From a virus, in the IMG/VR virus record IMGVR_UViG_3300031578_000247, positions 1-30,145 of that record: a stretch of 30,145 nt of DNA; one strand, 5' to 3'. Every line of letters starts with the position of its first letter. The first letter of the stretch is position 1. A model generated the notes under the pieces. The model searched no databases and was not told the origin of the DNA. It saw only the letters and a program-made list of their open reading frames with translations. Of this stretch, positions 4,117-27,652 are shown one piece after another. The position numbers and the translations under genes are program-made.

Positions 4117-5196
4117 ATGTTAAAAGTAGGAAGCGACTTTTCGGGGGTTGGTGCATTTAATCAAGCCTTAATAAGATTAGGAAAACAATATAAAGAAGTT
4201 TTTGCGTGTGATATGGATAAATACGCACGACAAACATTTATAGAAAATTACGGAGAGCCAGAATACTATCCGACAAATGTTTACGATCGTAAAATACCTA
4301 TAGATAGTTTAGATATTTATATGACTTCTCCACCTTGTCAAGCATTTTCGTTAGCGGGAAAACGATTAGGAAAAGACGATAAACGCGGAATTTTATTCTT
4401 TAATTCTTACGAGTTTATTCAAGTAAACAAACCACGTTTTTTTATATTTGAAAATGTTAAGGGATTACTTTCGGACGATAACGGTAAGACCTTTAGTGAA
4501 TGGGTAAATATGTTAGGTGGTAAATCAGTTAACGGAGTACCAGTATTATTCCCTTACGAAGAATCCGTTCCTTATCATTTATATTGGAAAGTTCTAAACG
4601 CAAAAGAACACGGAGTACCACAAAACCGAGAACGTGTGTTTTTAATTGGTATTCGAGACGATTCGGATAATAAGTTTCAATTTCCAAAAGAAGAACATTT
4701 AACAAAACGTCTTAAAGACGTATTAGAAGAAAACGTAGAAGAAAAGTATTTTTTAAGCGAAAAAATGATTTCTCATTTAAATAATTACGAAAGGAGCGTT
4801 CCTTTTATTAATGAAAATACAATAAATGTAAAAACGATAACTTCCAACTATTCAAAACAAAGTAGCGATTTACAATATTTAAAAATTAAAAGCGCAACCG
4901 CCAAAGGTTACGAAGAAGCAACCGAAGGAGATTCAATAAATTTTAGTGTATTAAATAGTGAAACAAGAAGGGGAAGGGTAGGTAAACAAGTAGCACAAAC
5001 GTTAGATACTGCGTGCAATCAAGGGGTAATAAATAATTTTCAAATAAGACGTTTAACACCCCGTGAATGTTTTCGATTAATGGACTTCCCAAATACCTTT
5101 ACTTGGCCTGTATCGGATTCACAAGCATACAAACAAGCGGGTAATTCAATAGTAGTAAACGTTCTTTACAAAATACTAAAAAATTTGCCGTTATGA
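4117..5196 (+). CDS. dcm: DNA (cytosine-5)-methyltransferase
   Basis: All canonical C5-MTase motifs are present: I DFSGVGAF, IV PPCQAFS, VI FENVKGL, VIII QNRERVF, IX RRLTPRECFRLMDFP, X GNSIVVNV. Confidence 0.95.
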   Translation: MLKVGSDFSGVGAFNQALIRLGKQYKEVFACDMDKYARQTFIENYGEPEYYPTNVYDRKIPIDSLDIYMTSPPCQAFSLAGKRLGKDDKRGILFFNSYEFIQVNKPRFFIFENVKGLLSDDNGKTFSEWVNMLGGKSVNGVPVLFPYEESVPYHLYWKVLNAKEHGVPQNRERVFLIGIRDDSDNKFQFPKEEHLTKRLKDVLEENVEEKYFLSEKMISHLNNYERSVPFINENTINVKTITSNYSKQSSDLQYLKIKSATAKGYEEATEGDSINFSVLNSETRRGRVGKQVAQTLDTACNQGVINNFQIRRLTPRECFRLMDFPNTFTWPVSDSQAYKQAGNSIVVNVLYKILKNLPL

Positions 5197-5717
5197 GGTG
5201 CAAAAACTGCAAAGCCGTATTTACCCCCGTTAAGTTTAATCAAAAATATTGCTTAGAATCCGATTGCGTTCGTGTTTGGGTAGAATCGGAAAAGGAAAAG
5301 CAATGGAAGAAGAAGAAGAAACAATTAAAAGACGAACTCCAAACCTTACCCGAGTTACTTAAATTAGCTCAAATAACGTTTAACAAGTACATACGACTAA
5401 GGGATAAAGATAAACCTTGTGTAAGTTGTGAAAAGCCGTTAGGAGCGAAATATGACGCGGGACACTATTTTAGTATGGGTGGACACAAAGCCGTAACATT
5501 TGACGAAGACAACGTACACGCTCAATGCGTAACGTGCAACCAGTACAAACACGGAAACTTATTGAATTACCAAATAGGAATACAACAAAGAATAGGAGCA
5601 GATAGGTTATTAGAATTACATTCCCGCGCTCACGATGTCAAGAAGTGGACAAAAGACGAACTAAACGAAATTATTAAACGCTATAAACAAAAGATAAATG
5701 ATTTCCAACAAGGCTAA
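5193..5717 (+). CDS. ninG: NinG/Rap-family recombination protein
   Basis: N-terminal CKNC..YC..DC zinc ribbon, then FNKYIRLRDKDKPCVSCEK...AGHYFS....VTFDEDNVHAQCVTCNQYKHGN, which matches the lambda NinG family pattern. ATGA overlap with the methyltransferase gene. Confidence 0.85.
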   Translation: MRCKNCKAVFTPVKFNQKYCLESDCVRVWVESEKEKQWKKKKKQLKDELQTLPELLKLAQITFNKYIRLRDKDKPCVSCEKPLGAKYDAGHYFSMGGHKAVTFDEDNVHAQCVTCNQYKHGNLLNYQIGIQQRIGADRLLELHSRAHDVKKWTKDELNEIIKRYKQKINDFQQG

Positions 5718-6201
5718 AGAACTATCGAGTAACGAACACATTCAGCACTCACAAGAAACGGGAACGCAAGGCGAATACAATTTTATTCAAGCGTGTAAAA
5801 AAAACAAAATCGAATTTAAGAAATCTACCGCAAACGAGGATATATTTTCGCACGTGGACTTCTTTATTTACGGAAAAGGAATAGACGTTAAAGGCTATAA
5901 AAAAAGCCACTCCGAGGGGTTTATAGTTGTTGAGTTTAAGAACGTAAACGGGTACGCTGGTAGTTGCTCAAACGAATCTAACGCGGAATGGATAGCGTTT
6001 CAATTCGAGGAATGTTTTTGGATAGTACGAAAAGACGAACTATTAAGGTACTGCCGTAAAAACGTTAAAGTAGAAATGGTAAGCGAGTTTAAGGATTGTT
6101 ATAAGAAACTATACACCCGTAAAGACCGCAAAGACTTAATGACAAGGCTACATTTAAGCGACCTTAAAACCTTTAATTTTATTTGGAAGTTAAAGTTTTA
6201 G
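5698..6201 (+). CDS. Hypothetical protein with a possible PD-(D/E)xK nuclease core
   Basis: E..(GEYNFIQ), then HVDFF, then GIDVKGYKK, giving an E / D / (D/E)xK arrangement on predicted strand-helix elements. Motif-level only. Confidence 0.35.
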   Translation: MISNKAKELSSNEHIQHSQETGTQGEYNFIQACKKNKIEFKKSTANEDIFSHVDFFIYGKGIDVKGYKKSHSEGFIVVEFKNVNGYAGSCSNESNAEWIAFQFEECFWIVRKDELLRYCRKNVKVEMVSEFKDCYKKLYTRKDRKDLMTRLHLSDLKTFNFIWKLKF

Positions 6202-6295: not shown

Positions 6296-6613
6296 ATGAA
6301 AACAACAAATGAAATCTTAAAAATGACACATCAAGAATTGATTAATTCAAGTGATGAAATAAAACAAATGTATCGTGAAGCAAAAACAATGGAAAACTTA
6401 ACTAAAGCAACAAATTTAATTGCTCAGGGTTACAAGCACTTACAATTCCGACAAGGCGGATGTATTCAAAAAAAGAAAAATTCAAACGGTGAATTTTATG
6501 TAATTAAAAACGGGTACGGAACGGGAAAAGTAACAAACACTTTTTTAACATTAAAAGAATGTTTAATTGAATTACAAGGTTGCGGATGGGGAGAAATCGT
6601 AGAATATAAATAA
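6296..6613 (+). CDS. Early leader protein of cassette 2, 105 aa, hypothetical
   Basis: ORF track. Start context AACGCTATGAAAAC identical to gene 483-674. Followed immediately by the 35-nt element. Confidence 0.75.
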   Translation: MKTTNEILKMTHQELINSSDEIKQMYREAKTMENLTKATNLIAQGYKHLQFRQGGCIQKKKNSNGEFYVIKNGYGTGKVTNTFLTLKECLIELQGCGWGEIVEYK

Positions 6614-6646
6614 CAAAACAAGGGGTGCGACTTGGTAACGCACATT
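6612..6646 (+). promoter_or_regulatory. Copy 2 of the identical 35-nt hairpin element (nut/put-like candidate)
   Basis: 100% identical to 676-710. It overlaps the last 2 nt of the leader ORF stop, and the next ATG lies 14 nt downstream. Confidence 0.5.
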
Positions 6647-6659
6647 AATTTTATACGCT

Positions 6660-7187
6660 ATGAAACATTTATTTAAATCGTTGGCAGCCTTCCAACAGGA
6701 AGTACCCGTAATTCACAAGGGTACACAAGGCTTCGGGTATAGTTACGCAGATTTACCCGCTATCTTTGAAAAGATTAACCCACTACTAAAGAAACACGGA
6801 TTAGGGTTTACGCAGTTGTTAGACACTAAAGAAGGTGTCGACTATATTGCTACCGTTATTTTCCATATTGAAAGTGGCGAAACTTTAGAATCTAAAGTAG
6901 CCATTCCACAAGTTACGTTAAAAGGAATGAACGATTACCAATCATTCGGAAGCGGGGTTACTTACTTTAGAAGATACGCGCTTAGTTCCGCACTCGGATT
7001 AGTTACCGACAAAGACACGGACGCAAGTGGCGAACAAGTAAAACACGAACCAAAGAAACCTAATATCGACCAAAAGCGTTTAGGCAAAGCCTTAGAAGCA
7101 ATCGCAGAAGGTAAATACACTAAGGACGAACTACTGGCGAACTTTAGTTTAACTGATTCTCAAATCAAATTACTCGAAAACGTATGA
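6660..7187 (+). CDS. erf: ERF-family single-strand annealing recombinase
   Basis: FGYSYADLPAIFEKINPLLKKHGL...HIESGE...QSFGSGVTYFRRYALSSALGLVTDKDTDA matches the Erf family signature (Y.YA.L, sGe, G...TY.rRY, D.DdD). Confidence 0.85.
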   Translation: MKHLFKSLAAFQQEVPVIHKGTQGFGYSYADLPAIFEKINPLLKKHGLGFTQLLDTKEGVDYIATVIFHIESGETLESKVAIPQVTLKGMNDYQSFGSGVTYFRRYALSSALGLVTDKDTDASGEQVKHEPKKPNIDQKRLGKALEAIAEGKYTKDELLANFSLTDSQIKLLENV

Positions 7188-7855: not shown

Positions 7856-8133
7856 CACTTTTTAACTTAGACGAATTTTCGGAAGATTGGAAAAAACATT
7901 ATATAGGAATGCCCGAATATAATAACGTAAAACCTTTGCCACCCGAAATAACCGCTACTTTTAAGTTTAGAAATAAAGAAGATTTTGATAAATTTATGCA
8001 AGTAGTTAAAGAATTGTTATACGATAATAAAAGAGTATTTGACGGAAAACAAAAAAAGAACGAGTATTCTGCTTGGTTTCCTTTAGATTCAAGACCTTCG
8101 GAACATATTTATATAGTACAAAATGAAAAATAA
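7852..8133 (+). CDS. Hypothetical protein, 93 aa, coupled to the glycosyltransferase gene
   Basis: ORF track. Contains W..HYIGMPEY...ATFKFRNKEDFDKF...SAWFP. Overlaps the next gene by 11 nt. Visibly AT-richer than the flanks. Confidence 0.7.
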   Translation: MTLFNLDEFSEDWKKHYIGMPEYNNVKPLPPEITATFKFRNKEDFDKFMQVVKELLYDNKRVFDGKQKKNEYSAWFPLDSRPSEHIYIVQNEK

Positions 8134-8953
8134 ATACCCAATTTATGTACCGACAAAAGGAAGGTTTGAAAGTAGAAAAACCATAAAAGCCCTTTTGGAA
8201 ATAGGAGCAGAATTTAAGGCGGTTATTGAGCCACAAGAATACGATTTATACAAAACAATACTTGACGATAGTTATATTCTTGTTTTGCCATTTTCAAAAC
8301 CTACCGACCATTCAATGTTAGTAACCGTTAGAAATTGGATTAAAGAACATTCAATAAACGAAGGGCATAAAAGGCATTGGCAATTAGACGATAATATCAA
8401 GGCTTTTTATAGAATGAACAATAACAAACGAAATAAGGTATTATCTCCCGTTATATTTAGATGCGTAGAAGATTTTGTAGACAGGTACAAAAACGTAGCT
8501 ATGGCTGGATTAAACTATATGAATTACGCAATACCCGACGGAAGGCCACCATATTTTTTGAATAGTAGAGTTTATTCGATGAGTTTAGTAAACAATGAAC
8601 TACCTTACCAATGGCGTGGAATATATAATGACGATACCGATATATGCTTAAGGATGTTAAAAGACGGATATTGCACAATAAATTTTAACGCGTTTTCGGG
8701 GGATAAAGATGCCACTATGGTAACAAAAGGAGGAAATACCCCTATTTACACGACGGGAGATTTAAGAAGCAATTTTGTAGATAGTTTAATAGAACAACAC
8801 CCCGATGTAGTTAAAAAAGTATGGCGGTTTAATAGGTGGCATCACGAAGTAAATTACAAACCTTTTGCGAAAAATAAATTAATACTTAAACAAGGAATAC
8901 AAATAGAAAATAAAGTAAATGAATACGGAATGAAATTAATTAAAACAATATGA
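8123..8953 (+). CDS. Putative GT-A-fold glycosyltransferase (resembles phage DNA-base / TET-associated glycosyltransferases)
   Basis: N-terminal PIYVPTKGR strand-loop; DxD-like WQLDDNI; a second acidic cluster YNDDTDICLR. Family assignment is from memory of the TAGT/GREB1-like pattern and was not searched. Confidence 0.4.
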   Translation: MKNKYPIYVPTKGRFESRKTIKALLEIGAEFKAVIEPQEYDLYKTILDDSYILVLPFSKPTDHSMLVTVRNWIKEHSINEGHKRHWQLDDNIKAFYRMNNNKRNKVLSPVIFRCVEDFVDRYKNVAMAGLNYMNYAIPDGRPPYFLNSRVYSMSLVNNELPYQWRGIYNDDTDICLRMLKDGYCTINFNAFSGDKDATMVTKGGNTPIYTTGDLRSNFVDSLIEQHPDVVKKVWRFNRWHHEVNYKPFAKNKLILKQGIQIENKVNEYGMKLIKTI

Positions 8954-17986: not shown

Positions 17987-18168
17987 GTTATATAAACCAA
18001 ATAGTGCAACTTTTACAAGTAGCGGATTTCGTAGGCGAACACGAATATATTGAAATCGCAAAAGGAAAGTACAAACTAAACGACAAAATAAAGCCAGCGT
18101 ACAAACAAATGCTACGCGAGTTATATATAAAAAAAATAGAAAGAAATGGCGGAAAAACGAACGATTGA
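17983..18168 (+). CDS. Hypothetical protein, 61 aa
   Basis: ATGA overlap with the upstream gene. Overlaps the tape-measure start by 23 nt. Confidence 0.6.
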   Translation: MSYINQIVQLLQVADFVGEHEYIEIAKGKYKLNDKIKPAYKQMLRELYIKKIERNGGKTND

Positions 18169-20596
18169 ATTAGAGGTTCAAAGTGATGTAAAACCACTAA
18201 AGGCGCAATTAAAAGAAGCCGTTACGGAACTTGAAAAAATGGTTTCCCTTTACGGGGAGCAGTCCGAGCAAGCGGTAATAGCAGCAAAACGGGCAGCGCA
18301 ATTAAAAGACAAAATCGAAGACACGAACGATATGTTAAAAACATATAAGGGGGAAGGAACGTTTTTAGCAATGAATAAAGCAATGACGGCGGTCGCTTCG
18401 GGTTTTAGTGCAGTCGAGGGCGGGTTAGCGTTAGTAGGAGTTGAAGGGGAAGCCGTACAACAAACTATGATGAAGGTACAGGCGGCTATGGCTTTGGCTC
18501 AAGGGCTTGAGGGCTTAGAAGACGCGGGAAGGGCGTTTAGCACGTTAGGTACAAAGATAAAAGACGTAGTTTTAGGGTTAGTAAAGAAAAACGCAGTAAC
18601 CGCAGCGGGTGCAGCCGTAGACAAAACTAACGTAGCCACTACGGTAGCGCAAGGAGTTGCTTCTTCGGGGTTAGCAACCGCACAAACGGGCGTAGCGGTT
18701 ACCACTGGGGTAGCGAGCAACGCAATGAAATTATTTAGAATTGCTTTGATTTCTACGGGTATCGGTGCAATCGTTGTGGCGGTTGGTTTATTAATTGCAA
18801 ATTTTGACACCGTCGCAAAAGTTATTCAAAATCCAATAAAAGAGTTTGAAAAATTAGGAGTTTTTGGAAAAATTGTTGCGTTCACTTTTATGCCCTTGAT
18901 TGCAATATTTCAAGGCGTAGCAAAAGCACTTCAATTTTTTGGCGTAATAGATAGCGACGTTACAAAAGAAATGAAGGCAAACGCAGAAGCACACACGGAA
19001 GCGGTTATTAAAAGCGCGGATAAACGAGCGAAGGCAATCAAGAAGGAACAAGACGCAACCGACGCGAAGTACACGCATGAAATCAACATGGCGAAGGCTT
19101 CGGGTAAGGCAACTTACGAAATGGAACTTTCTAAGGCGAAATCACACTTGAAAACTGGGCGCGTTTTCTTAGAAGTTCAAAAATCTAAAATGAAGGCTAT
19201 AAAAGCCGAAATGGATTTATTGTTAGAAACGGAAGACAAGGACTCCGATAGATACAAGGAGTTGAAAAAACGAACGGAGGCAGTCCGTAAGATAATGGAC
19301 GAAACCTACAAAGACAACGTAGACACAAAGCACTCCATTGAAATAATGGAAGCCCAACACCAAAAAGAAATGGCGGATAAGGCTAAGCAAGGAGCGGATA
19401 AAGCAAAGCAAACCGCAGAACAAAACCGCAAAGCATATATAGACAACTTAAAGAAACAAAACGACGACCAAGCAAAATTAGAAGAAGAAGCCGAAAACCA
19501 AAAGCTCGCGTTATTGCAAGACGGGATAGACAAGGAAAAGGCGCTAAGACAAGACGCGTTTAACGATTACCGCGATAACTTCTTAAAGGAACGAACGCAA
19601 GAAGAACAAGCCGCCTTAAATAAACAATACGAAAGCGGAAAAATAAGCCGTGAGGAATATAATAAAGCCGTAGAAGAACTAAGGTTAAACGCAGAATCTA
19701 AACTAACGGAGCAAGAACGCCAAATTTTAGTAAACGCTAAAGACCTATTGAATAAAGACTTGTTAGCAATAGACGAAAAGCACCAAGCCGAAGTAAAAAA
19801 ACGCACCGAGGATTTTCAAAAGAAAATGCAAGAAGACGAAAAGAAAAGGCGGTTAGATTTCGATATGCAAATAGAGCAGATACAAGAACAAAACTACCAA
19901 GAAAGTTTAAGCGAGCAACAACGCGAAATATATTTACTTCAAGAAAAGTATGCGGAAATGCAGTTATTAGCACAAGGTAACGCGGATGCAGAAAAGACGA
20001 TAGCCGAAGCTAAAGGGCGCGAACTTGACGCAATAAACAAAAAGTACGACGAAGAAGACAAAGCACGAAGGGAAGCCGCATTACAACGTAACGCGGATTT
20101 AGCAAAGTCGGGGTTAAGCGCAATTAGCGAACTTACGGAGTTGTTTGGTAAGAAAAGCGAAAAACAAGCAAAGAAAGCATTCCAAATTAAAAAGGCGGCA
20201 AGTATATCGAGCGCGTTAATAGATACTTTTTTAAGTGCGCGTTCGGCTTATTTATCGCAGTTTACACCAGTACCCGACCCAAGTTCTCCCGTTCGTGGTG
20301 GTATCGCTGCGGGTATAGCGGTTGCAAGTGGGTTAATAGGAGTTGCTAAAATAGCTTCGCAAAAATTCGAGGGCGGTGGTTCGGCTTCGGGTGGCGGTGG
20401 CGGTGGTGGCGCTGAAGGTGGCGGGGGTGGTATGGGTGGCGGTAGCCAAGCGCCTTCGTTTAACGTTGTAGGCAATAACGGACTTAACCAACTTGCACAA
20501 CTTCAACAGCAACCGACACAAGCCTACGTAGTAAGTGGACAAGTAACTACGGCTCAAAGTTTGGATAGGAATAGAGTACAAAACGCAACACTTTAA
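18146..20596 (+). CDS. Tape measure protein (or internal/ejection protein), 816 aa
   Basis: A long Ala/Glu/Lys/Gln coiled-coil region, central hydrophobic helices (ALISTGIGAIVVAVGLLIANF, IVAFTFMPLIAIF) and a Gly-rich tail (GGGSASGGGGGGGAEGGGGGMGGG). It is the largest ORF. Confidence 0.65.
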   Translation: MAEKRTIELEVQSDVKPLKAQLKEAVTELEKMVSLYGEQSEQAVIAAKRAAQLKDKIEDTNDMLKTYKGEGTFLAMNKAMTAVASGFSAVEGGLALVGVEGEAVQQTMMKVQAAMALAQGLEGLEDAGRAFSTLGTKIKDVVLGLVKKNAVTAAGAAVDKTNVATTVAQGVASSGLATAQTGVAVTTGVASNAMKLFRIALISTGIGAIVVAVGLLIANFDTVAKVIQNPIKEFEKLGVFGKIVAFTFMPLIAIFQGVAKALQFFGVIDSDVTKEMKANAEAHTEAVIKSADKRAKAIKKEQDATDAKYTHEINMAKASGKATYEMELSKAKSHLKTGRVFLEVQKSKMKAIKAEMDLLLETEDKDSDRYKELKKRTEAVRKIMDETYKDNVDTKHSIEIMEAQHQKEMADKAKQGADKAKQTAEQNRKAYIDNLKKQNDDQAKLEEEAENQKLALLQDGIDKEKALRQDAFNDYRDNFLKERTQEEQAALNKQYESGKISREEYNKAVEELRLNAESKLTEQERQILVNAKDLLNKDLLAIDEKHQAEVKKRTEDFQKKMQEDEKKRRLDFDMQIEQIQEQNYQESLSEQQREIYLLQEKYAEMQLLAQGNADAEKTIAEAKGRELDAINKKYDEEDKARREAALQRNADLAKSGLSAISELTELFGKKSEKQAKKAFQIKKAASISSALIDTFLSARSAYLSQFTPVPDPSSPVRGGIAAGIAVASGLIGVAKIASQKFEGGGSASGGGGGGGAEGGGGGMGGGSQAPSFNVVGNNGLNQLAQLQQQPTQAYVVSGQVTTAQSLDRNRVQNATL

Positions 20597-21201: not shown

Positions 21202-21576
21202 ATGAGCAACTTAAACACTATCCTAAACAAGTTAGGAAAAATAGAAGCAATCCACGAAACTAACTTAGGTAAACACGAAATCGAGTTAAGCATAAAAGAC
21301 AATGCAAAACAATTAGTATCAAAATATTACGGATTAACTGATACAATAAATTCTAAATATTCAGCAATACAAAAAGAAATTCGTCTTTTAACTGAAAAAA
21401 TAGACGAAGCAAATAAATTAGCAAACGAAATGCCTAAAGTTATTTCTAAATATGAAAATCTTGCTAAAGAATTGGGAATAGACGTAAACAATATTCAAGA
21501 ATTAAAAGATATGAATTTAGCCGTTAAGGATGTTGCTCAATATAAAACTTTGTCTTCTAAATTAAAATCTTTGTAA
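21202..21576 (+). CDS. Paralog family member 1 (124 aa), conserved N-terminal leader MSNLNTILNKLGKIEAIHETNLGKHEIEL
   Basis: ORF track. Its first 35 nt are identical to the start of 21589-21951. Shares the AKELGI motif. AT-rich. Confidence 0.8.
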   Translation: MSNLNTILNKLGKIEAIHETNLGKHEIELSIKDNAKQLVSKYYGLTDTINSKYSAIQKEIRLLTEKIDEANKLANEMPKVISKYENLAKELGIDVNNIQELKDMNLAVKDVAQYKTLSSKLKSL

Positions 21577-21588
21577 ATAATAAATAAA

Positions 21589-21951
21589 ATGAGCAACTTA
21601 AACACTATCCTAAACAAGTTAGGTAAAATCGAAAAAATACACGAAACGAATTTAGGTAAACACGAAGTTGAGTTAGGTATAATTCAAGACGATTTAAAAA
21701 AAATTATATCGGCTCAAAAGGACTTTGAAAATGCATTTTTAGTAATTTCCGCAGCAAGGCAAAAAGCTATTCCAATTATGAAAAACTCAATAACGACGGC
21801 AGAAAAATTTTTGGTTCAAGTAGAAAATGCAAAAAAAATAGCAAAAGAATTAGGGGTAAATTTACCAAAAGACTACTTAGACTTAAACCAAAAAGCAGGG
21901 GTTTTAGTTGGTGAGGCGCAAGACATTATCGATTGGCTTAATAAGTATTAA
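21589..21951 (+). CDS. Paralog family member 2 (120 aa), leader MSNLNTILNKLGKIEKIHETNLGKHEVEL
   Basis: ORF track. Near-identical 5' end of about 90 nt to member 1, with a diverged body. Carries the AKELGV motif. Confidence 0.8.
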   Translation: MSNLNTILNKLGKIEKIHETNLGKHEVELGIIQDDLKKIISAQKDFENAFLVISAARQKAIPIMKNSITTAEKFLVQVENAKKIAKELGVNLPKDYLDLNQKAGVLVGEAQDIIDWLNKY

Positions 21952-21967
21952 ACAATAAATAACTTTA

Positions 21968-22102
21968 ATGGCTAAACAAACAAGCGTAACTACTCACACT
22001 CGTAAACCAAAAGTAAAACGTCCTAACGTACACGCGAAAAGTAAAACGAGCAAACTAAAAACGAGTAAGAATTACGTAAAACTAAATAAAGGTCAAGGAT
22101 GA
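21968..22102 (+). CDS. Highly basic mini-protein, 44 aa (MAKQTSVTTHTRKPKVKRPNVHAKSKTSKLKTSKNYVKLNKGQG)
   Basis: Hand-translated; below the track cutoff. It has 13 Lys/Arg and no Asp/Glu, and an ATGA overlap with the next ORF at 22099. Confidence 0.5.
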   Translation: MAKQTSVTTHTRKPKVKRPNVHAKSKTSKLKTSKNYVKLNKGQG

Positions 22103-22281
22103 ACGAAAACGGGAACAAATCAAGAGCAAGTAGGACAAGCGGCAAACGCGCGTGCCTATGTAAAGATGGAACGTATAAACGAAAGTGCTGTACTGGCGAA
22201 CTACAAAACCAAGGAATCGGAAGCGACGTAACACCACCGCAACCCGTGCCACCCGCACCGAATTGGAATCCACTACCTTAA
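22099..22281 (+). CDS. Basic Cys-cluster / Pro-rich mini-protein, 60 aa
   Basis: ORF track. Contains CLCKDGTYKRKCC, then TPPQPVPPAPNWNPLP. Confidence 0.55.
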   Translation: MNENGNKSRASRTSGKRACLCKDGTYKRKCCTGELQNQGIGSDVTPPQPVPPAPNWNPLP

Positions 22282-22312
22282 AAATGCAACAAACAAAAAT
22301 TAAATAAGTTAT

Positions 22313-22729
22313 ATGATTATGAAAAACGTTTTAGACAAAATCAATAAGGCTCACGAAGTTGAAGCAACTAAGTTAGGTACGCACGAAGTTGAGTTAGCGT
22401 TAGTTGACGAATTAAATGCGTTAGAAGATAGGGGTTCTGCGATAGTAGAATTATTTACTAAAAACATAGATAAATTTGAGCAGTTAATTTTATCTATGGA
22501 AGATATTACAAAGAAAACTTCACAACAAAACGAAGTAGTAAATAATAATAAAGGTTTGGCGCAAAAGTGGGATAACGAAGTAACAAAAGTTTACTCAAAA
22601 GCATTAGATGCGGCTAAACAATTAGGAGTAAATAAAAACGATATTCAAGGTTTAGCTAAATTAGAAAAAACAATGATAGCCGTCCAAAACGCAATTAATA
22701 ACGCGCAAAAAATTGCAAAAAGATTTTAA
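22313..22729 (+). CDS. Paralog family member 3 (138 aa), leader MIMKNVLDKINKAHEVEATKLGTHEVEL
   Basis: ORF track. Shares the LG(K/T)HE(I/V)EL and AKQLGV motifs with members 1 and 2. Confidence 0.8.
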   Translation: MIMKNVLDKINKAHEVEATKLGTHEVELALVDELNALEDRGSAIVELFTKNIDKFEQLILSMEDITKKTSQQNEVVNNNKGLAQKWDNEVTKVYSKALDAAKQLGVNKNDIQGLAKLEKTMIAVQNAINNAQKIAKRF

Positions 22730-22745
22730 TTAATAAATAAACAAA

Positions 22746-23345
22746 ATGAAAAATAGCACACTATTAGAAAAAATCAAAGCGATGTTATCTAACGAAGTAA
22801 AGTTAGAACGAATGCTTATGGGCGACGGAGTAACCAAAATCGAAGCGGATTCTTTTGAAGCGGGTAAAGAGGTTTTTGTCGTAACGGAAGACGAACAAAA
22901 GATAGCCGTTCCCGTTGGAGAATACGAATTAGAAGACGGGCGTATTTTAGTTATCGTTGAAGAAGGTATTATTTCCGAAATCAAAGAAAAAGAAGAAGAA
23001 GTAGAAGAAGTTGAAGAGGAAGTAAAAGAAGAAGAGGTTGAAGCAATGCCCGAAGAAGAAATGAGCGCACCCGTTGCAACTCCTAAAAAAACTATTGAAT
23101 CCATTGTTAAAGAATCATTCTTTAGCGAAATGGAAAAACTTAAAGAAGAAAACGAAGCGTTAAAAGCAGAATTGGCTAAACTTTCCAAAGTTGACGCGAT
23201 CGCAAACGAAGCGACCGAACTTAGCGAAACACCTACCCCAATTTCTTTTAACCCCGAAAACGAAGCTAAAACCGAGTTTACTAAAATCGGTAAAAAAGCA
23301 CCACGCGGAATAATGGATTCCGTATTAGAAAAAATTAATAAATAA
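22746..23345 (+). CDS. Scaffolding-like acidic coiled-coil protein
   Basis: Directly upstream of the major capsid gene. Has a Glu-rich tract EKEEEVEEVEEEVKEEEVE and the coiled coil MEKLKEENEALKAELAKL. Confidence 0.5.
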   Translation: MKNSTLLEKIKAMLSNEVKLERMLMGDGVTKIEADSFEAGKEVFVVTEDEQKIAVPVGEYELEDGRILVIVEEGIISEIKEKEEEVEEVEEEVKEEEVEAMPEEEMSAPVATPKKTIESIVKESFFSEMEKLKEENEALKAELAKLSKVDAIANEATELSETPTPISFNPENEAKTEFTKIGKKAPRGIMDSVLEKINK

Positions 23346-23360
23346 TTAAAATTAAAAAAA

Positions 23361-24293
23361 ATGCCAAATCCAAACATTACAACTACTTACGCAGGTCAAT
23401 GGGCAGGTAAGTACGTTTCAGCGGCTTTATTAAGCGCACCAACTATCGAAGGTGGCGGGGTAACCGTTATGCCTAACGTAAAATTCAAAAGCGTTATCCA
23501 ACGTTTAGAAACTACTAACTTTCTACAAGATGCTTCTTGCGACTTCCAACCTGCGGGACAAGTTAACTTAACCGAGCGTATCTTAGAAGTTAAAGACCTT
23601 CAAGTGAATATGACACTTTGTAAAAAAGAGTTTCATTCAACTTGGCAATCTATCGAAATGGGTTATTCTTCTTTCGACACTTTGCCTAAATCTTTTGCAG
23701 ATTACCTTATTGCATACGCCGCTGAAAAAGTAGCCGCTGCTAACGAGGTTTCTATTTGGCAAGGTAACGGCGCACTTTCGGGAGAATTTGACGGGTTATT
23801 TACAACCGCTCAAGCGGATTTAGCTTTACCGCCAGCTCAAAATATCGCGGGTGGTGCAATCAACGCGGGTAACGTTATTCCTGCTTTACAATCGGTTTAC
23901 GATGCTATTCCTGCTTCTTTGTATGGTAAGCCCGATTTAAAAATTTACGTTGCACAAGACGTTATTAAAGCGTATGTTGCTGCATTAGGTGGTTTTTCTG
24001 CGTTGGCTACGTCTAACTCGGGGGTTAACGCTCAAGGTACAATGTGGTATAACAACGGAATGGTAACTTTCAACGGATTACCTTTGTTTATGGCTAACGG
24101 ATTGCCTACTTCTTCTATGATGGCTACAACTACTTCTAACCTTTACTTCGGTTGTTCTTTATTGAGCGACACGCAAGAAGTTAGAGTAATTGATACTTCT
24201 GCTACTTTAGGAGATGATAACGTTCGTGTAATTATGCGATACGCTGCGGGTGCGCAATATGGAGTTATCGAAGATATCGTAGTTTACGGATAA
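23361..24293 (+). CDS. Major capsid protein (HK97-fold type)
   Basis: 310 aa with Ala/Gly/Thr/Val-rich composition. It follows the scaffold-like gene and is followed by a strong intrinsic terminator. N-terminal region TTYAGQWAGKYVSAALLSA...LEVKDLQVNMTLCKKEF is typical of MCPs. Confidence 0.75.
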   Translation: MPNPNITTTYAGQWAGKYVSAALLSAPTIEGGGVTVMPNVKFKSVIQRLETTNFLQDASCDFQPAGQVNLTERILEVKDLQVNMTLCKKEFHSTWQSIEMGYSSFDTLPKSFADYLIAYAAEKVAAANEVSIWQGNGALSGEFDGLFTTAQADLALPPAQNIAGGAINAGNVIPALQSVYDAIPASLYGKPDLKIYVAQDVIKAYVAALGGFSALATSNSGVNAQGTMWYNNGMVTFNGLPLFMANGLPTSSMMATTTSNLYFGCSLLSDTQEVRVIDTSATLGDDNVRVIMRYAAGAQYGVIEDIVVYG

Positions 24294-24314: not shown

Positions 24315-24347
24315 GGGGTGGTGGATAATACTGCCACCCTTTTTTTT
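24315..24347 (+). terminator. Rho-independent terminator after the major capsid gene
   Basis: GGGTGG (24316-24321) pairs with CCACCC (24334-24339), followed by T8 (24340-24347). Confidence 0.8.
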
Positions 24348-25010: not shown

Positions 25011-25343
25011 ATGATAGTAGTCCAAGAACAATTAACAAGCCAAACCTTCGATTTCATACCGCGTTATGGAACACCTACAACGTGCGAACTAATCGACGAA
25101 AACACTAACGTACTTACAACGGTTGCGGGTACGTTTACGGCGGGGGATTACGTCTACCAATTTACGGGAATCTTACCCACGGAAGAGAACCAATTTTATT
25201 GGATGGTATTAAAAGACGCGAACGGAGATTTAGTATTAAAAGAACGTATCTTTTGCACGAACCAACCTATTAACACGTTCTCGGTAAACAACGGGGAATA
25301 TGTAAGCAACCAAACAACTAACGACTTTATAATGTATGAGTAA
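25011..25343 (+). CDS. Hypothetical protein, 110 aa
   Basis: ORF track. Overlaps the portal start by 8 nt. Confidence 0.7.
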   Translation: MIVVQEQLTSQTFDFIPRYGTPTTCELIDENTNVLTTVAGTFTAGDYVYQFTGILPTEENQFYWMVLKDANGDLVLKERIFCTNQPINTFSVNNGEYVSNQTTNDFIMYE

Positions 25344-27150
25344 TAACGTTCACATATTACAATTAGCAGAATATCAACAACCGACTATTCAAGAATCTAA
25401 ACGCGATGCGTGGGTAGAATTCGGCGAAGATAATAACTACTTCGGGTACTTAATAGATAGGTACACGAAATCCACTACAAACAGCGCGATAATAAACAAC
25501 GTAAGCCGTTTAATTTACGGCAAAGGTCTTAGTGCCTTAGATGCTTCGCGTAAGCCTAACGAGTACGCTCAAATGATGACCTTGTTTTCTGCGGATTGTT
25601 TGCGTAAAATGGTATTCGATAGAAAACTATTCGGGCAATTTGCTATGCAAGTTCATTACAACGACAAGCACGATAAAATCTTAAAGGTTTACCATATACC
25701 AGTAAACTTATTACGTGCGGAAAAATGCAACGATAAAGGCGAAATAACGGGTTATTTTTATTCCGATAATTGGGACGATGTACGTAAGTTCCCACCTACG
25801 CGAATTCCCGCGTTTGGACACTCAAAAGACAAAGTAGAAATAATGTTTGTACGCCCTTACGGTGTTGGAATGAAATATTACGCATACCCCGACTACCAAG
25901 GCGCGATTCCTTACGCAGTTTTGGAAGAAGAAGTAAGCGACTACCTAATTAACGAAGTTCAAAACGGCTTTTCGGGAACTAAGGTGGTTAACTTTAACAA
26001 CGGAGTTCCTTCGGAAGAACAACAAGACTTAATTAGTCAAAAGGTACTAAGCAAGTTAACGGGTTCAAAAGGACAAAAAGTTATAGTAGCCTTTAACTTA
26101 AATTCCGAATCTAAAACAACGGTGGACGATATTCCTTTAAACGATGCGCCCGACCATTACACGTATTTATCGGAGGAATGTTTAAGAAAAATAATGTTAG
26201 GACACAACGTTACAAGTCCTTTACTTTTCGGTATTGCTTCCAGTAACGGGTTTTCAAGTAACGCAGACGAACTACAAAACTCGTTTGTATTGTTTAACAA
26301 TATGGTTATTAAGCCTTTTCAAGACGAAATCTTAGAAGCCTTAGACAAAGTCTTAGCATTTAACGGGATAGCCTTAAAACTATTCTTTAGAACATTAAAA
26401 CCACTTGAATTTACCGACTTAGAAAACGCCACTACGGAAGAACAAGTAACCGAAGAAACGGGAGCGGATGCAACTGAATTACATTCAGAACTTAAAGCAC
26501 AAAGCACGGAAGAACAAATAGCGTTAGCCTTACAAGAATTCGGAGAAGAACCCCAAGCGGATTGGCTACTAATAGACGAAGCACCAGTAGACTACGACAC
26601 GGACGAAGAAGAAAACAACGCGCTTAAAGGCGAAAAAAGTTTATTCTCTCGTTTGGTTGAATTGGTAAATACTGGCGTTGCATTTCCTAACGCTAAGTCC
26701 AAACAAGACGAAGTAATAGACGGCGTTAAGTTTATTACACGTTATGTTTACGAAGGAGAAGACGGGGGTAAAAGCGGTAAGACACGCCCATTTTGTAGGC
26801 TAATGAAATCGGCAAAAAAGATTTACCGAAAAGAAGACATTTTGCGAATGAGCAAAAGCGTAGTAAACGCATACTACATAAACGCGGAAGGCGAACAAAT
26901 AGGCTTCGGAAAAAAAGGCGCACTAACTTACGATATTTGGTTATACAAAGGCGGGCCTAATTGCCACCACCGTTGGAATAAACAAGTTTACGCGCAGTTC
27001 GATAGCCGTTTTGGTATAGACGTTAATAGCCCGAACGCAAAAAGAATGGCCGTAAGAAAAGCGGAAAAATTTGGATATAAAATTAAAAACAATGCACTCG
27101 TAAGCACTCGACCTATCGATATGCCGAACCGAGGTTTTTTACCTAAATAA
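25336..27150 (+). CDS. Portal protein with an acidic linker and a MuF/SPP1-gp7-like C-terminal module
   Basis: The N-terminus WVEFGEDNNYFGYLIDRYTKSTTNSAIINNVSRLIYGKGL resembles portal N-termini. Size is 604 aa. The C-terminal segment GKTRPFCRLM...IYRKEDI...GGPNCHHRW resembles the Cys/His motif of head-morphogenesis MuF proteins. Confidence 0.6.
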   Translation: MSNNVHILQLAEYQQPTIQESKRDAWVEFGEDNNYFGYLIDRYTKSTTNSAIINNVSRLIYGKGLSALDASRKPNEYAQMMTLFSADCLRKMVFDRKLFGQFAMQVHYNDKHDKILKVYHIPVNLLRAEKCNDKGEITGYFYSDNWDDVRKFPPTRIPAFGHSKDKVEIMFVRPYGVGMKYYAYPDYQGAIPYAVLEEEVSDYLINEVQNGFSGTKVVNFNNGVPSEEQQDLISQKVLSKLTGSKGQKVIVAFNLNSESKTTVDDIPLNDAPDHYTYLSEECLRKIMLGHNVTSPLLFGIASSNGFSSNADELQNSFVLFNNMVIKPFQDEILEALDKVLAFNGIALKLFFRTLKPLEFTDLENATTEEQVTEETGADATELHSELKAQSTEEQIALALQEFGEEPQADWLLIDEAPVDYDTDEEENNALKGEKSLFSRLVELVNTGVAFPNAKSKQDEVIDGVKFITRYVYEGEDGGKSGKTRPFCRLMKSAKKIYRKEDILRMSKSVVNAYYINAEGEQIGFGKKGALTYDIWLYKGGPNCHHRWNKQVYAQFDSRFGIDVNSPNAKRMAVRKAEKFGYKIKNNALVSTRPIDMPNRGFLPK

Positions 27151-27151
27151 A

Positions 27152-27652
27152 ATGGCGGAAGCATTACTAATAACACGAGAAGATTTAGTGCGATTTACCG
27201 CACTTAACGGGAACATTGATACTGATACATTCATACAATGGATTAAAGTTGCTCAAGACATCCATATACAGCAGTACACGGGAACGGAACTACTTAATAA
27301 GATCAAAGCGGATATAGTAGCGGGAACGTTAGCGAATCCTTATTTAGACCTTGTCGAAATTTACTTAAAGCCGATGTTAATACACTGGGCAATGGTTGAA
27401 TACCTTCCGTTTATGGCGTACACGTTAGCCAACAAAGGTATCTTTAAGCATAGTTCGGAAAACGCTTCTAACGTGGATAAAAACGAAGTGGATTTTTTAG
27501 TAGACAAGCAAAAGTATTTAGCGCAAAACTACACCGAGAGATTCGTTCAATTTATGATTTTTTCGGGTAACACTTTTCCCGAATACTACGCAAACACGAA
27601 TAGCGACATATATCCAAACACGGACTCAAATTACAGCGGATGGGTAATATAA
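27152..27652 (+). CDS. Head-tail adaptor / connector-like protein (tentative)
   Basis: The pattern I.REDL...T.....D...I...I..AQ...I...LG..L is typical of gp6-like connectors. It sits next to the portal gene. Confidence 0.4.
   Translation: MAEALLITREDLVRFTALNGNIDTDTFIQWIKVAQDIHIQQYTGTELLNKIKADIVAGTLANPYLDLVEIYLKPMLIHWAMVEYLPFMAYTLANKGIFKHSSENASNVDKNEVDFLVDKQKYLAQNYTERFVQFMIFSGNTFPEYYANTNSDIYPNTDSNYSGWVI

Follow-up and report, generated by a model that had tools for sequence, protein, structure and literature searches.

A dispensable family of small helical proteins with cassette-exchanged bodies between the prohead protease and scaffold genes of a ~30-kb phage

The stretch of viral DNA analysed here (positions 1 to 30,145 of IMG/VR record IMGVR_UViG_3300031578_000247; 30,145 nucleotides, referred to as the window) carries three tandem genes of one protein family between its prohead protease and scaffold-like genes. 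The family is large and is annotated in neither Pfam nor PHROGs, and the lineage that carries it consists of ~30-kb siphophages of Flavobacteriia type. Each family protein is composed of a conserved N-terminal module of ~30-35 residues (the leader), a hypervariable helical shaft, a conserved AKELG turn and a short return helix. The part behind the leader (the body) is exchanged between related genomes as a cassette whose breakpoints fall within the leader and at the gene's 3' end, and the family illustrates very clearly how cassettes in a structural operon can be hypervariable. Its genes are dispensable accessories. By analogy with the internal proteins (IPs) of phage T4, the reading that we tentatively prefer is that these accessory proteins dock by their conserved N-terminus on a procapsid component, are loaded in the procapsid interior and are delivered with the DNA.

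The three open reading frames (ORFs) lie on the + strand and, as had been proposed in a first-pass annotation made from the letters of the window, share an N-terminal block of ~30 residues and the AKELG turn and differ over the remainder. The coordinates proposed for copies 1 and 2 were retained, whereas copy 3 more likely starts at 22319 than at the proposed 22313, because its homologues begin at MKN. Copies 1 and 2 are identical over nucleotides 1-35, show 88% identity across the first 90 nucleotides, both much as claimed, and have 27 of their first 29 residues in common. The leaders of copies 1 and 2 (type A) and of copy 3 (type B) are related: the Smith-Waterman score of A against B was 62, compared with a mean of 20 (standard deviation 4.4) for shuffled sequences, and 0 of 2000 shuffles reached 62. 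The motif AK(E/Q)LG(I/V) was found in all three copies, ~30 residues from the C-terminus. The AT-richness and CG poverty noted earlier were also reproduced, with a GC content of 27-31% in the paralogs against 37% in the window and 24-41 CG per kb against 58, and the neighbours were those named: an XkdF-type protease (PF14550) upstream, and scaffold-like and major capsid protein (MCP) genes downstream (Table 1).

A profile search of 5.8 billion proteins returned 192 full-length homologues (E≤0.01, 110-150 residues), all of them unnamed or labelled "hypothetical", and 168 clusters at 50% identity were obtained at E≤1e-10 from 1.84 billion cluster representatives, with lengths of 108-176 residues save for one truncated ORF of 41 residues. 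In a comparison of 69 family members, residues L22 and G92 never varied, and conservation reached 90% or more at H25, L29 and K89; within the turn it is 87% for A, 90% for K, 82% for E, 89% for L and 100% for G. Structure prediction, which had been suggested as a check, was carried out for copies 1 and 3 with AlphaFold2 using the family alignment and yielded the same shape in both cases, namely a helix of 90-100 residues, a glycine turn and a short return helix. The model of copy 1 (predicted local distance difference test score, pLDDT, of 92) comprises a helix at residues 2-91, a turn at the invariant G92 and a helix at 99-122, and that of copy 3 (pLDDT 80) a helix at 2-102, a turn and a helix at 112-135. 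As a lone helix of 90-100 residues is unstable, the modelled protein would be expected to form a coiled coil with itself or to lie along a partner; the long helix as modelled would in principle be thin enough for the portal channel. Searches of Pfam and PHROGs with the three paralogs and with the two small proteins encoded between them (b44 and c60) gave no match reaching the cut-off, only sub-threshold coiled-coil noise, and no Pfam hit at the cut-off identified the variable C-terminal part as a recognisable toxin or enzyme domain. A profile search of the PDB gave generic helical and coiled-coil matches only, and Foldseek with the pLDDT-92 model of copy 1 found nothing at E≤0.001 in the PDB or BFVD.

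Copy number and sequence turnover across related phages, likewise put forward earlier as a check, were assessed by scanning IMG/VR with the window protease. The scan identified 263 relatives, of which 80 loci with proteases 81-96% identical were examined, and slot architecture was compared in 72 loci (the window and 71 related IMG/VR loci). The architecture is constant, in the order protease, slot A, b44, c60, slot B, scaffold and MCP, with two fixed slots, one after the protease and one before the scaffold, and the two small conserved genes in between. Slot A holds 0-2 family genes with the leader MSNLNTILNKLGKIEEIHETNLGKHEVEL, and slot B 0-2 family genes with the leader MKNILDKINKAxExxAxKxELGxHEVEL. 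The number of family copies per genome ranges from 0 to 3; the 71 relatives have 0-2, three occur only in the window, and the window is the only one of the 72 loci with two slot A genes. The content between the conserved flanks varies, and protease and scaffold are 544-1717 bp apart. The family is missing altogether from five contigs, which come from different samples, and is therefore not needed for capsid building. An essential scaffold role was excluded on the basis of these zero-copy relatives and of bodies that are unrelated between near-identical genomes.

Body clusters were defined at 40% identity over 70% of the length, and at least 56 of them were present among 203 sequences (homologues and loci combined); identical body types were found behind different leader types, and cluster 0, to which the body of copy 1 belongs, is the commonest. 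For random pairs of family genes from related loci the median identity was 0.21 in the body against 0.52 in the leader, and a body at least 40% identical was present in 2 of 102 relatives for copy 1, in 0 of 102 for copy 2 and in 1 of 102 for copy 3. L005 and L006 are 100% identical at the nucleotide level over the protease, the slot A gene, b44 and c60 and 92-100% identical in the scaffold, and their slot B bodies are 20-57% identical; the sole difference between L004 and L006 is the slot A body; and L012 and L013 differ by whole-gene insertions. Since unrelated bodies occur in genomes whose flanking genes are 100% identical, whole cassettes must be exchanged. The N- and C-terminal halves of the body are mostly co-inherited, which identifies the whole body as the unit of exchange and led us to reject independent recombination of the two halves. 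Drift in place was excluded as the source of body divergence, as synonymous sites in the flanks are ~0.72 identical whereas the bodies are at saturation (~0.4), and a diversity-generating retroelement is not considered plausible, given that the differences between bodies consist of indels and unrelated sequence instead of point mutations.

These observations bear on the possibility that the proteins are auxiliary scaffolds or assembly struts with no host-directed role, whose conserved ends contact assembly partners and whose shaft is a freely drifting spacer. Their elongated helical shape with a C-terminal helix-turn-helix, as in the phi29 and P22 scaffolding proteins, would suit such a role, as would the conservation of both ends and the location of the genes next to the scaffold gene. 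However, assembly does not require the proteins, given that natural relatives without any copy exist; drift in place cannot yield unrelated bodies between flanks that are 100% identical in nucleotides, a point reinforced by the synonymous identity of the flanks (~0.72) against the saturated bodies (~0.4); and no profile similarity to the scaffold was detected. We consider a strut role very unlikely.

The leader is a separately conserved module under purifying selection like that of core genes. Over the first ~45 nucleotides of the slot A gene, conservation across relatives resembles that of the protease at codon positions 1 and 2 (0.91-0.96) and amounts to 0.83-0.90 at position 3, against ~0.72 in the protease; it then decays to background (~0.4) by about +107 nucleotides. 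In the wider family the most conserved stretch is ..ELxxH(E/K)VEL(A/G/S)L.DD, and the extreme N-terminus differs by sub-lineage. Constraint on the leader at the nucleic acid level was rejected: the near-fixed CAC codon of the histidine is accounted for by a genome-wide bias of 31:1 towards CAC before G, and the excess of position 3 conservation over the protease is slight. A separate codon pattern was observed in relatives with Glu-Leu at both leader sites, in which GAG-TTA occurs twice, 21 nucleotides apart, with GAG in 30 of 36 and 34 of 47 sequences; GAG makes up 13% of Glu codons genome-wide and 26% of those before TTA, and the adjoining Val codon varies freely. The window copies (21262-21288, 21649-21675 and 22370-22396) have GAG-TTA at the second site only (the E-L of HEVEL/HEIEL), and Asn or Lys at the first. 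The excess of GAG-TTA may reflect shared ancestry or a constraint at the nucleotide level.

A profile search with the leader alone returned only truncated ORFs of 29-81 residues, and the full-length members themselves were not listed. Many metagenome contigs contain such leader-only ORFs of 29-81 residues that end just after HEVEL (e.g. P0126, P0145 and P0156 among P0121-P0191, and L083 at 5533-5631 and 6001-6102). Breaks in the assembly, frameshifts or genuine scars of recombination at the hypervariable boundary probably account for them, and ORF ends just after HEVEL fit this site as a recombination and assembly breakpoint. The abundance of truncated ORFs also shows that assemblies break or become chimeric here, as would be expected if the similarity were due to chance or to an assembly artefact, or if the ORFs were not real genes. 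Set against this are the 192 full-length homologues and 168 clusters, the purifying selection specific to codon position in the leader, the confident AlphaFold2 models and the recurrence of the same architecture in many independent samples, and the probability of an artefact is negligible.

Consecutive genes of the island are 2-31 nucleotides apart or overlap, and no + strand terminator-like site was found inside it. Promoter-like and terminator-like sites between 20000 and 25000 were no commoner than in shuffled sequence, as judged with a sigma-70-type model, from which Bacteroidota promoters differ. Given the tight spacing and the lack of internal signals, the family proteins are most likely made together with the assembly proteins, their genes being co-transcribed within the protease-scaffold-MCP operon.

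The site of the island was clarified by comparison with the nearest cultured relatives, the Nonlabens (Persicivirga) phages P12024S and P12024L (MCP 31% identical). With a Nonlabens phage as the nearest relative, the lineage probably infects Flavobacteriia. PHROG 24921 spans 349 positions, the first half of which matches the window protease and the second half the window scaffold. In P12024S, gp01 is one protease-scaffold protein of 349 residues encoded directly upstream of the MCP (L001 179-1228); the window protease is 46% identical to its N-terminal half, and the window scaffold, which is conserved in relatives, is homologous to its C-terminal half (BLASTP 8e-11). In the window lineage protease and scaffold are separate genes, 1.5 kb apart. 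As judged from these sequences, an ancestral protease-scaffold gene was split by insertion of the accessory island at the junction; and since protease and scaffold are fused in P12024S, the island would sit within what was ancestrally one gene for a capsid-interior protein. The protease of the window is of a short form, whereas in ~40% of the related loci (L012-L020, L031, L035-L039 and others) it is ~100 residues longer (294-298 residues). The C-terminal extension (ELESYTDYPK..ENAKIALRYAEENGWG..RANQLA..ISE.TI.RMASFERH..) matches phrog_2859 (e.g. L015 ~6556-6880), and its homologues are segments of prohead protease, portal/MuF/head morphogenesis and MCP genes in haloarchaeal tailed viruses and in Roseobacter, Synechococcus and Vibrio phages. 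An extension at the same junction that is homologous to capsid-gene fusions indicates that the site is used for capsid-associated passengers. Of the small genes between the slots, c60 was detected in 67 of 72 loci and b44 in 48 of 72; c60 encodes a CxC...CC cysteine cluster and a proline-rich tail, and both products could be internal head peptides.

The first-pass annotation had also described the N-terminus of the scaffold-like protein (MKNSTLLEKIKAM) as similar to the leader. This did not hold up, as shuffling gave p values of 0.2-0.5, a hidden Markov model (HMM) of the leader missed the site in a six-frame scan, and the hhalign probability was 0.2. Short resemblances do occur: the window scaffold (22746-22775, 23313-23342) ends in MDSVLEKINK, to be compared with the MKNVLDKINK at the start of copy 3, and the scaffold of L083 (6374-6955) starts with MKSNTILNK, to be compared with MSNLNTILNK in the family. 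A motif of 6-10 residues common to the family N-terminus and both scaffold termini was thus found post hoc, and lends weak support to loading into the procapsid.

If the preferred reading is correct, the conserved N-terminal helix would dock on a conserved phage partner that is synthesised concurrently, for which the scaffold/protease core of the procapsid under assembly is the likeliest candidate. The proteins would become incorporated in the head interior, whether or not the XkdF-type protease trims them, and would leave the head along with the DNA. Contact with a host target that itself varies, such as defence proteins, would be made by the variable shaft, and frequency-dependent selection would keep many alleles in circulation. 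Selection from a varying agent, most plausibly host defence, would in this way maintain the diversity of the shafts. Tandem leaders such as those of copies 1 and 2, with their 35 identical nucleotides, would supply homology for unequal crossing-over and cassette capture. In T4, the prohead protease removes the IP propeptide at an L/I-x-E motif, and the IPs are present in mature heads and are ejected into the host. Besides this precedent of IPs and their capsid-targeting sequence, loading would be consistent with the position of the island between the halves of an ancestral capsid-interior protein, with the passenger domain at the same junction in sister genomes, and with the appearance of b44 and c60.

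Several findings weigh against this reading. No homology places any member in proheads or virions, and tblastn of copy 1 against 50,697 phage records gave no match, so no cultured phage among these carries the family. No cleavage motif could be assigned for the XkdF-type protease; the tripeptide I-H-E occurs in copies 1 and 2 and is missing from copy 3, and no shared cleavage site can therefore be named. All of the ~370 family members observed have one architecture (long helix, glycine turn and short helix, 97-176 residues), which fits a strut, fibre or adaptor better than diverse effectors, and none of them joins the leader to an enzyme or another fold. Both the leader and the AKELG tip are conserved, which could equally suit a bridging strut or a surface fibre. 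The isoelectric point (pI) is near neutral (median 7.9, range 4.7-9.3), whereas the T4 IPs are basic. Homology between the family and the scaffold was rejected as unproven, as hhalign, shuffles and the leader HMM all failed to support it. The earlier proposal of capsid-targeted cargo like the T4 IPs was hence upheld as far as dispensability, the conserved leader, cassette turnover and operon position are concerned; a strict analogy was not, in view of the uniform fold, the near-neutral pI, the different protease family and the insignificant likeness to the scaffold.

The neutral pI and uniform, adaptor-like fold suit a binder better than a DNA-associated internal protein, and would be expected if the family comprised late accessories that are not packaged. 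These might be counter-defence factors, decoys or shields against immunity that senses the protease, scaffold or capsid, or agents of superinfection exclusion, with the leader binding the protease or scaffold or coupling expression, and the shaft binding host sensors. Hypervariable cassettes and dispensability are typical of counter-defence accessory regions. In addition, prohead protease activity activates the host cyclic-oligonucleotide-based anti-phage signalling system (CBASS), with escape mutations mapping to prohead protease and capsid genes (PMC12991175; 10.1101/2023.05.21.541620), and such sensing would provide a rationale for a variable partner gene beside the protease. However, counter-defence genes are usually early or have promoters of their own, while this family is embedded without signals in a late head operon, and its proteins would therefore be made only once defence has largely acted; nor was any match found in Pfam or PHROGs. 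A non-packaged role is accordingly judged somewhat unlikely.

The dispensability and variable copy number of the family are also compatible with an external capsid decoration or head fibre, in which the N-terminus, and perhaps the AKELG tip, would be anchored to the MCP lattice and the coiled-coil shaft exposed. Exposed virion proteins usually combine a conserved anchor with a distal part that varies, and the modelled long helix would imply an oligomeric rod. Parallels are the gene of lambda D, which lies between the protease/scaffold and MCP genes, and all-helical decoration proteins, which exist, such as P4 Psu. Against a decoration role, neither the PDB profile search nor Foldseek against the PDB and BFVD gave a fold or sequence match to a decoration family, and the two slots, inserted between the protease and scaffold halves, enclose small genes for basic and Cys-rich proteins, an arrangement that points inward. 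Nor is a selective agent known that could favour at least 168 sequence types on the surface of a capsid in water. This role is distinctly unlikely.

A more specific form of the cargo reading was also considered, in which a two-slot cassette system in the head operon of a widespread, uncultured lineage of siphophages loads coiled-coil "lances" into the capsid by means of the ~30-residue docking helix, each of more than 150 shafts neutralises a different host defence protein on DNA entry, and the system, although like that of the T4 IPs, arose independently with an XkdF-type protease. In this full form it is unlikely.

The positions of the features discussed are listed in Table 1. The window is a near-complete ~30-kb tailed-phage genome with almost all genes on the + strand, and its other genes include those for a primase/helicase, a DNA methyltransferase, an exonuclease, the large terminase, tail proteins and an endolysin. 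The head module runs in the order protease, three family genes, scaffold-like gene, MCP, two small genes and portal. The late gene order between 11483 and 27150 is unusual (terminase, tail, tape measure, protease, scaffold, MCP, two small genes and portal, followed by a DUF6712-family gene at 27152-27652), and P12024S shows the same order of protease-scaffold, MCP and portal. No relative of the region at the DNA level was found among 50,697 phage records, and a search with the MCP for a prophage or host in 185,579 genomes gave no match. The DNA methyltransferase matches phrog_116 (5e-80) and a second protein matches a glucosyl-hydroxymethylcytosine glucosyltransferase PHROG (7e-41) (loci 4117-5196 and 8123-8953); these sequence matches suggest DNA modification as a separate anti-restriction strategy.

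Table 1. Positions of the family genes and of neighbouring features in the window
Feature	Position	Strand	Remarks
Tape measure gene	18146-20596		
Prohead protease, XkdF / Peptidase_S78_2 type, short form, 193 aa	20618..21199	+	PF14550 7.4e-18; phrog_24921 5e-49; upstream flank of slot A
Family copy 1, 124 aa	21202..21576	+	Slot A; leader type A (MSNLNTILNKLGKIEAIHETNLGKHEIEL); body cluster 0
Leader of copy 1, first ~30 codons	21202..21291	+	Conserved N-terminal module and 5' recombination boundary
Family copy 2, 120 aa	21589..21951	+	Second slot A gene; leader type A; body cluster 1
b44, 44 aa	21968..22102	+	pI 11.4, net charge +12.7; between the two slots
c60, 60 aa	22099..22281	+	Cys/Pro-rich (..GKRACLCKDGTYKRKCCTGELQNQGIG..PP..); start overlaps the b44 stop (ATGA)
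Family copy 3, 136 aa	22319..22729	+	Slot B; leader type B (MKNVLDKINKAHEVEATKLGTHEVEL); body cluster 4; alternative start 22313 gives 138 aa
Scaffold-like protein, 199 aa	22746..23345	+	pI 4.5; downstream flank of slot B; phrog_24921 positions 218-330, 7e-07
MCP, last gene of the operon	23361..24293	+	phrog_11320 2e-37; 31% identical to P12024S gp02
Terminator-like hairpin after the MCP gene	24315..24340	+	First + strand site of its kind downstream of the protease
Portal gene	25336-27150		

Should the leader prove to be a capsid-loading signal, the family would represent a second case of the strategy used by T4 internal proteins, evolved independently in small siphophages whose protease is of another family; the leader would be a ready-made 30-residue tag for loading proteins into HK97-fold capsids. 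Should the shafts indeed act as lances, the family would constitute a large untapped library of small helical defence inhibitors. Variability of this pattern has repeatedly led to new counter-defence proteins, and the family is therefore a concrete set of candidates for screening. The apparent splitting of an ancestral protease-scaffold fusion by accessory genes would be informative on the evolution of head modules.

Among known systems, the family would, by analogy, work most like the polymorphic internal-protein genes of T-even phages. Like IPI, IPII and IPIII of T4, its members are small dispensable proteins with a common N-terminal block and a divergent remainder, present in several copies per genome, and the polymorphism of T4 type among close relatives is seen here as 0-3 copies, cassette replacement and at least 56 body types. 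They differ in that the protease is of the XkdF/S78_2 type rather than gp21, in that the conserved block measures ~30-35 residues rather than 10-19, and in that the mature bodies of the T4 proteins are unrelated and basic whereas those of the family have one fold and size and a near-neutral pI; the differences in protease and in bodies count against a strict analogy. The first-pass annotation had placed the T4 ip genes beside the prohead protease gene. This is inaccurate, since they lie elsewhere in the T4 genome; the genes of the family, by contrast, lie inside the protease-scaffold-MCP operon. The T4 IPs carry N-terminal capsid-targeting propeptides of 10-19 residues and are dispensable and poorly conserved among relatives (PMC9026906).

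Among the small helical scaffolds, phi29 gp7, the C-terminal helix-turn-helix of P22 gp8 and SaPI1 CpmB resemble the family in having an elongated helix with a C-terminal helix-turn-helix and a gene next to the scaffold and MCP genes, but they are essential and conserved within their lineages, whereas the family is sometimes absent, is hypervariable and showed no relation to its own scaffold in hhalign. MuF toxins embody the concept of loading variable host-directed proteins via capsid assembly. In the phage P1 Dar system, variable host-directed proteins are likewise loaded by the machinery of capsid morphogenesis (PMC9024508; PMC12810830). The family shares this concept with P1 Dar and MuF/gp7-type cargo, which are large and contain enzyme or toxin domains, whereas its own members are all-helical, of 13-16 kDa, have no Pfam domain and show no likeness to that cargo in sequence or fold. 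Accessory hot spots and counter-defence islands (10.1101/2023.04.06.535777) likewise show variable gene content between conserved flanks in near-identical genomes; here, however, the slot always receives the same family with an in-gene leader and belongs to a late structural operon without signals of its own, and because such signals are lacking the island is not a classical moron. P12024S, finally, has the same protease-scaffold-MCP order, with a protease domain 46% and an MCP 31% identical, but has no island, no family member, no b44 and no c60.

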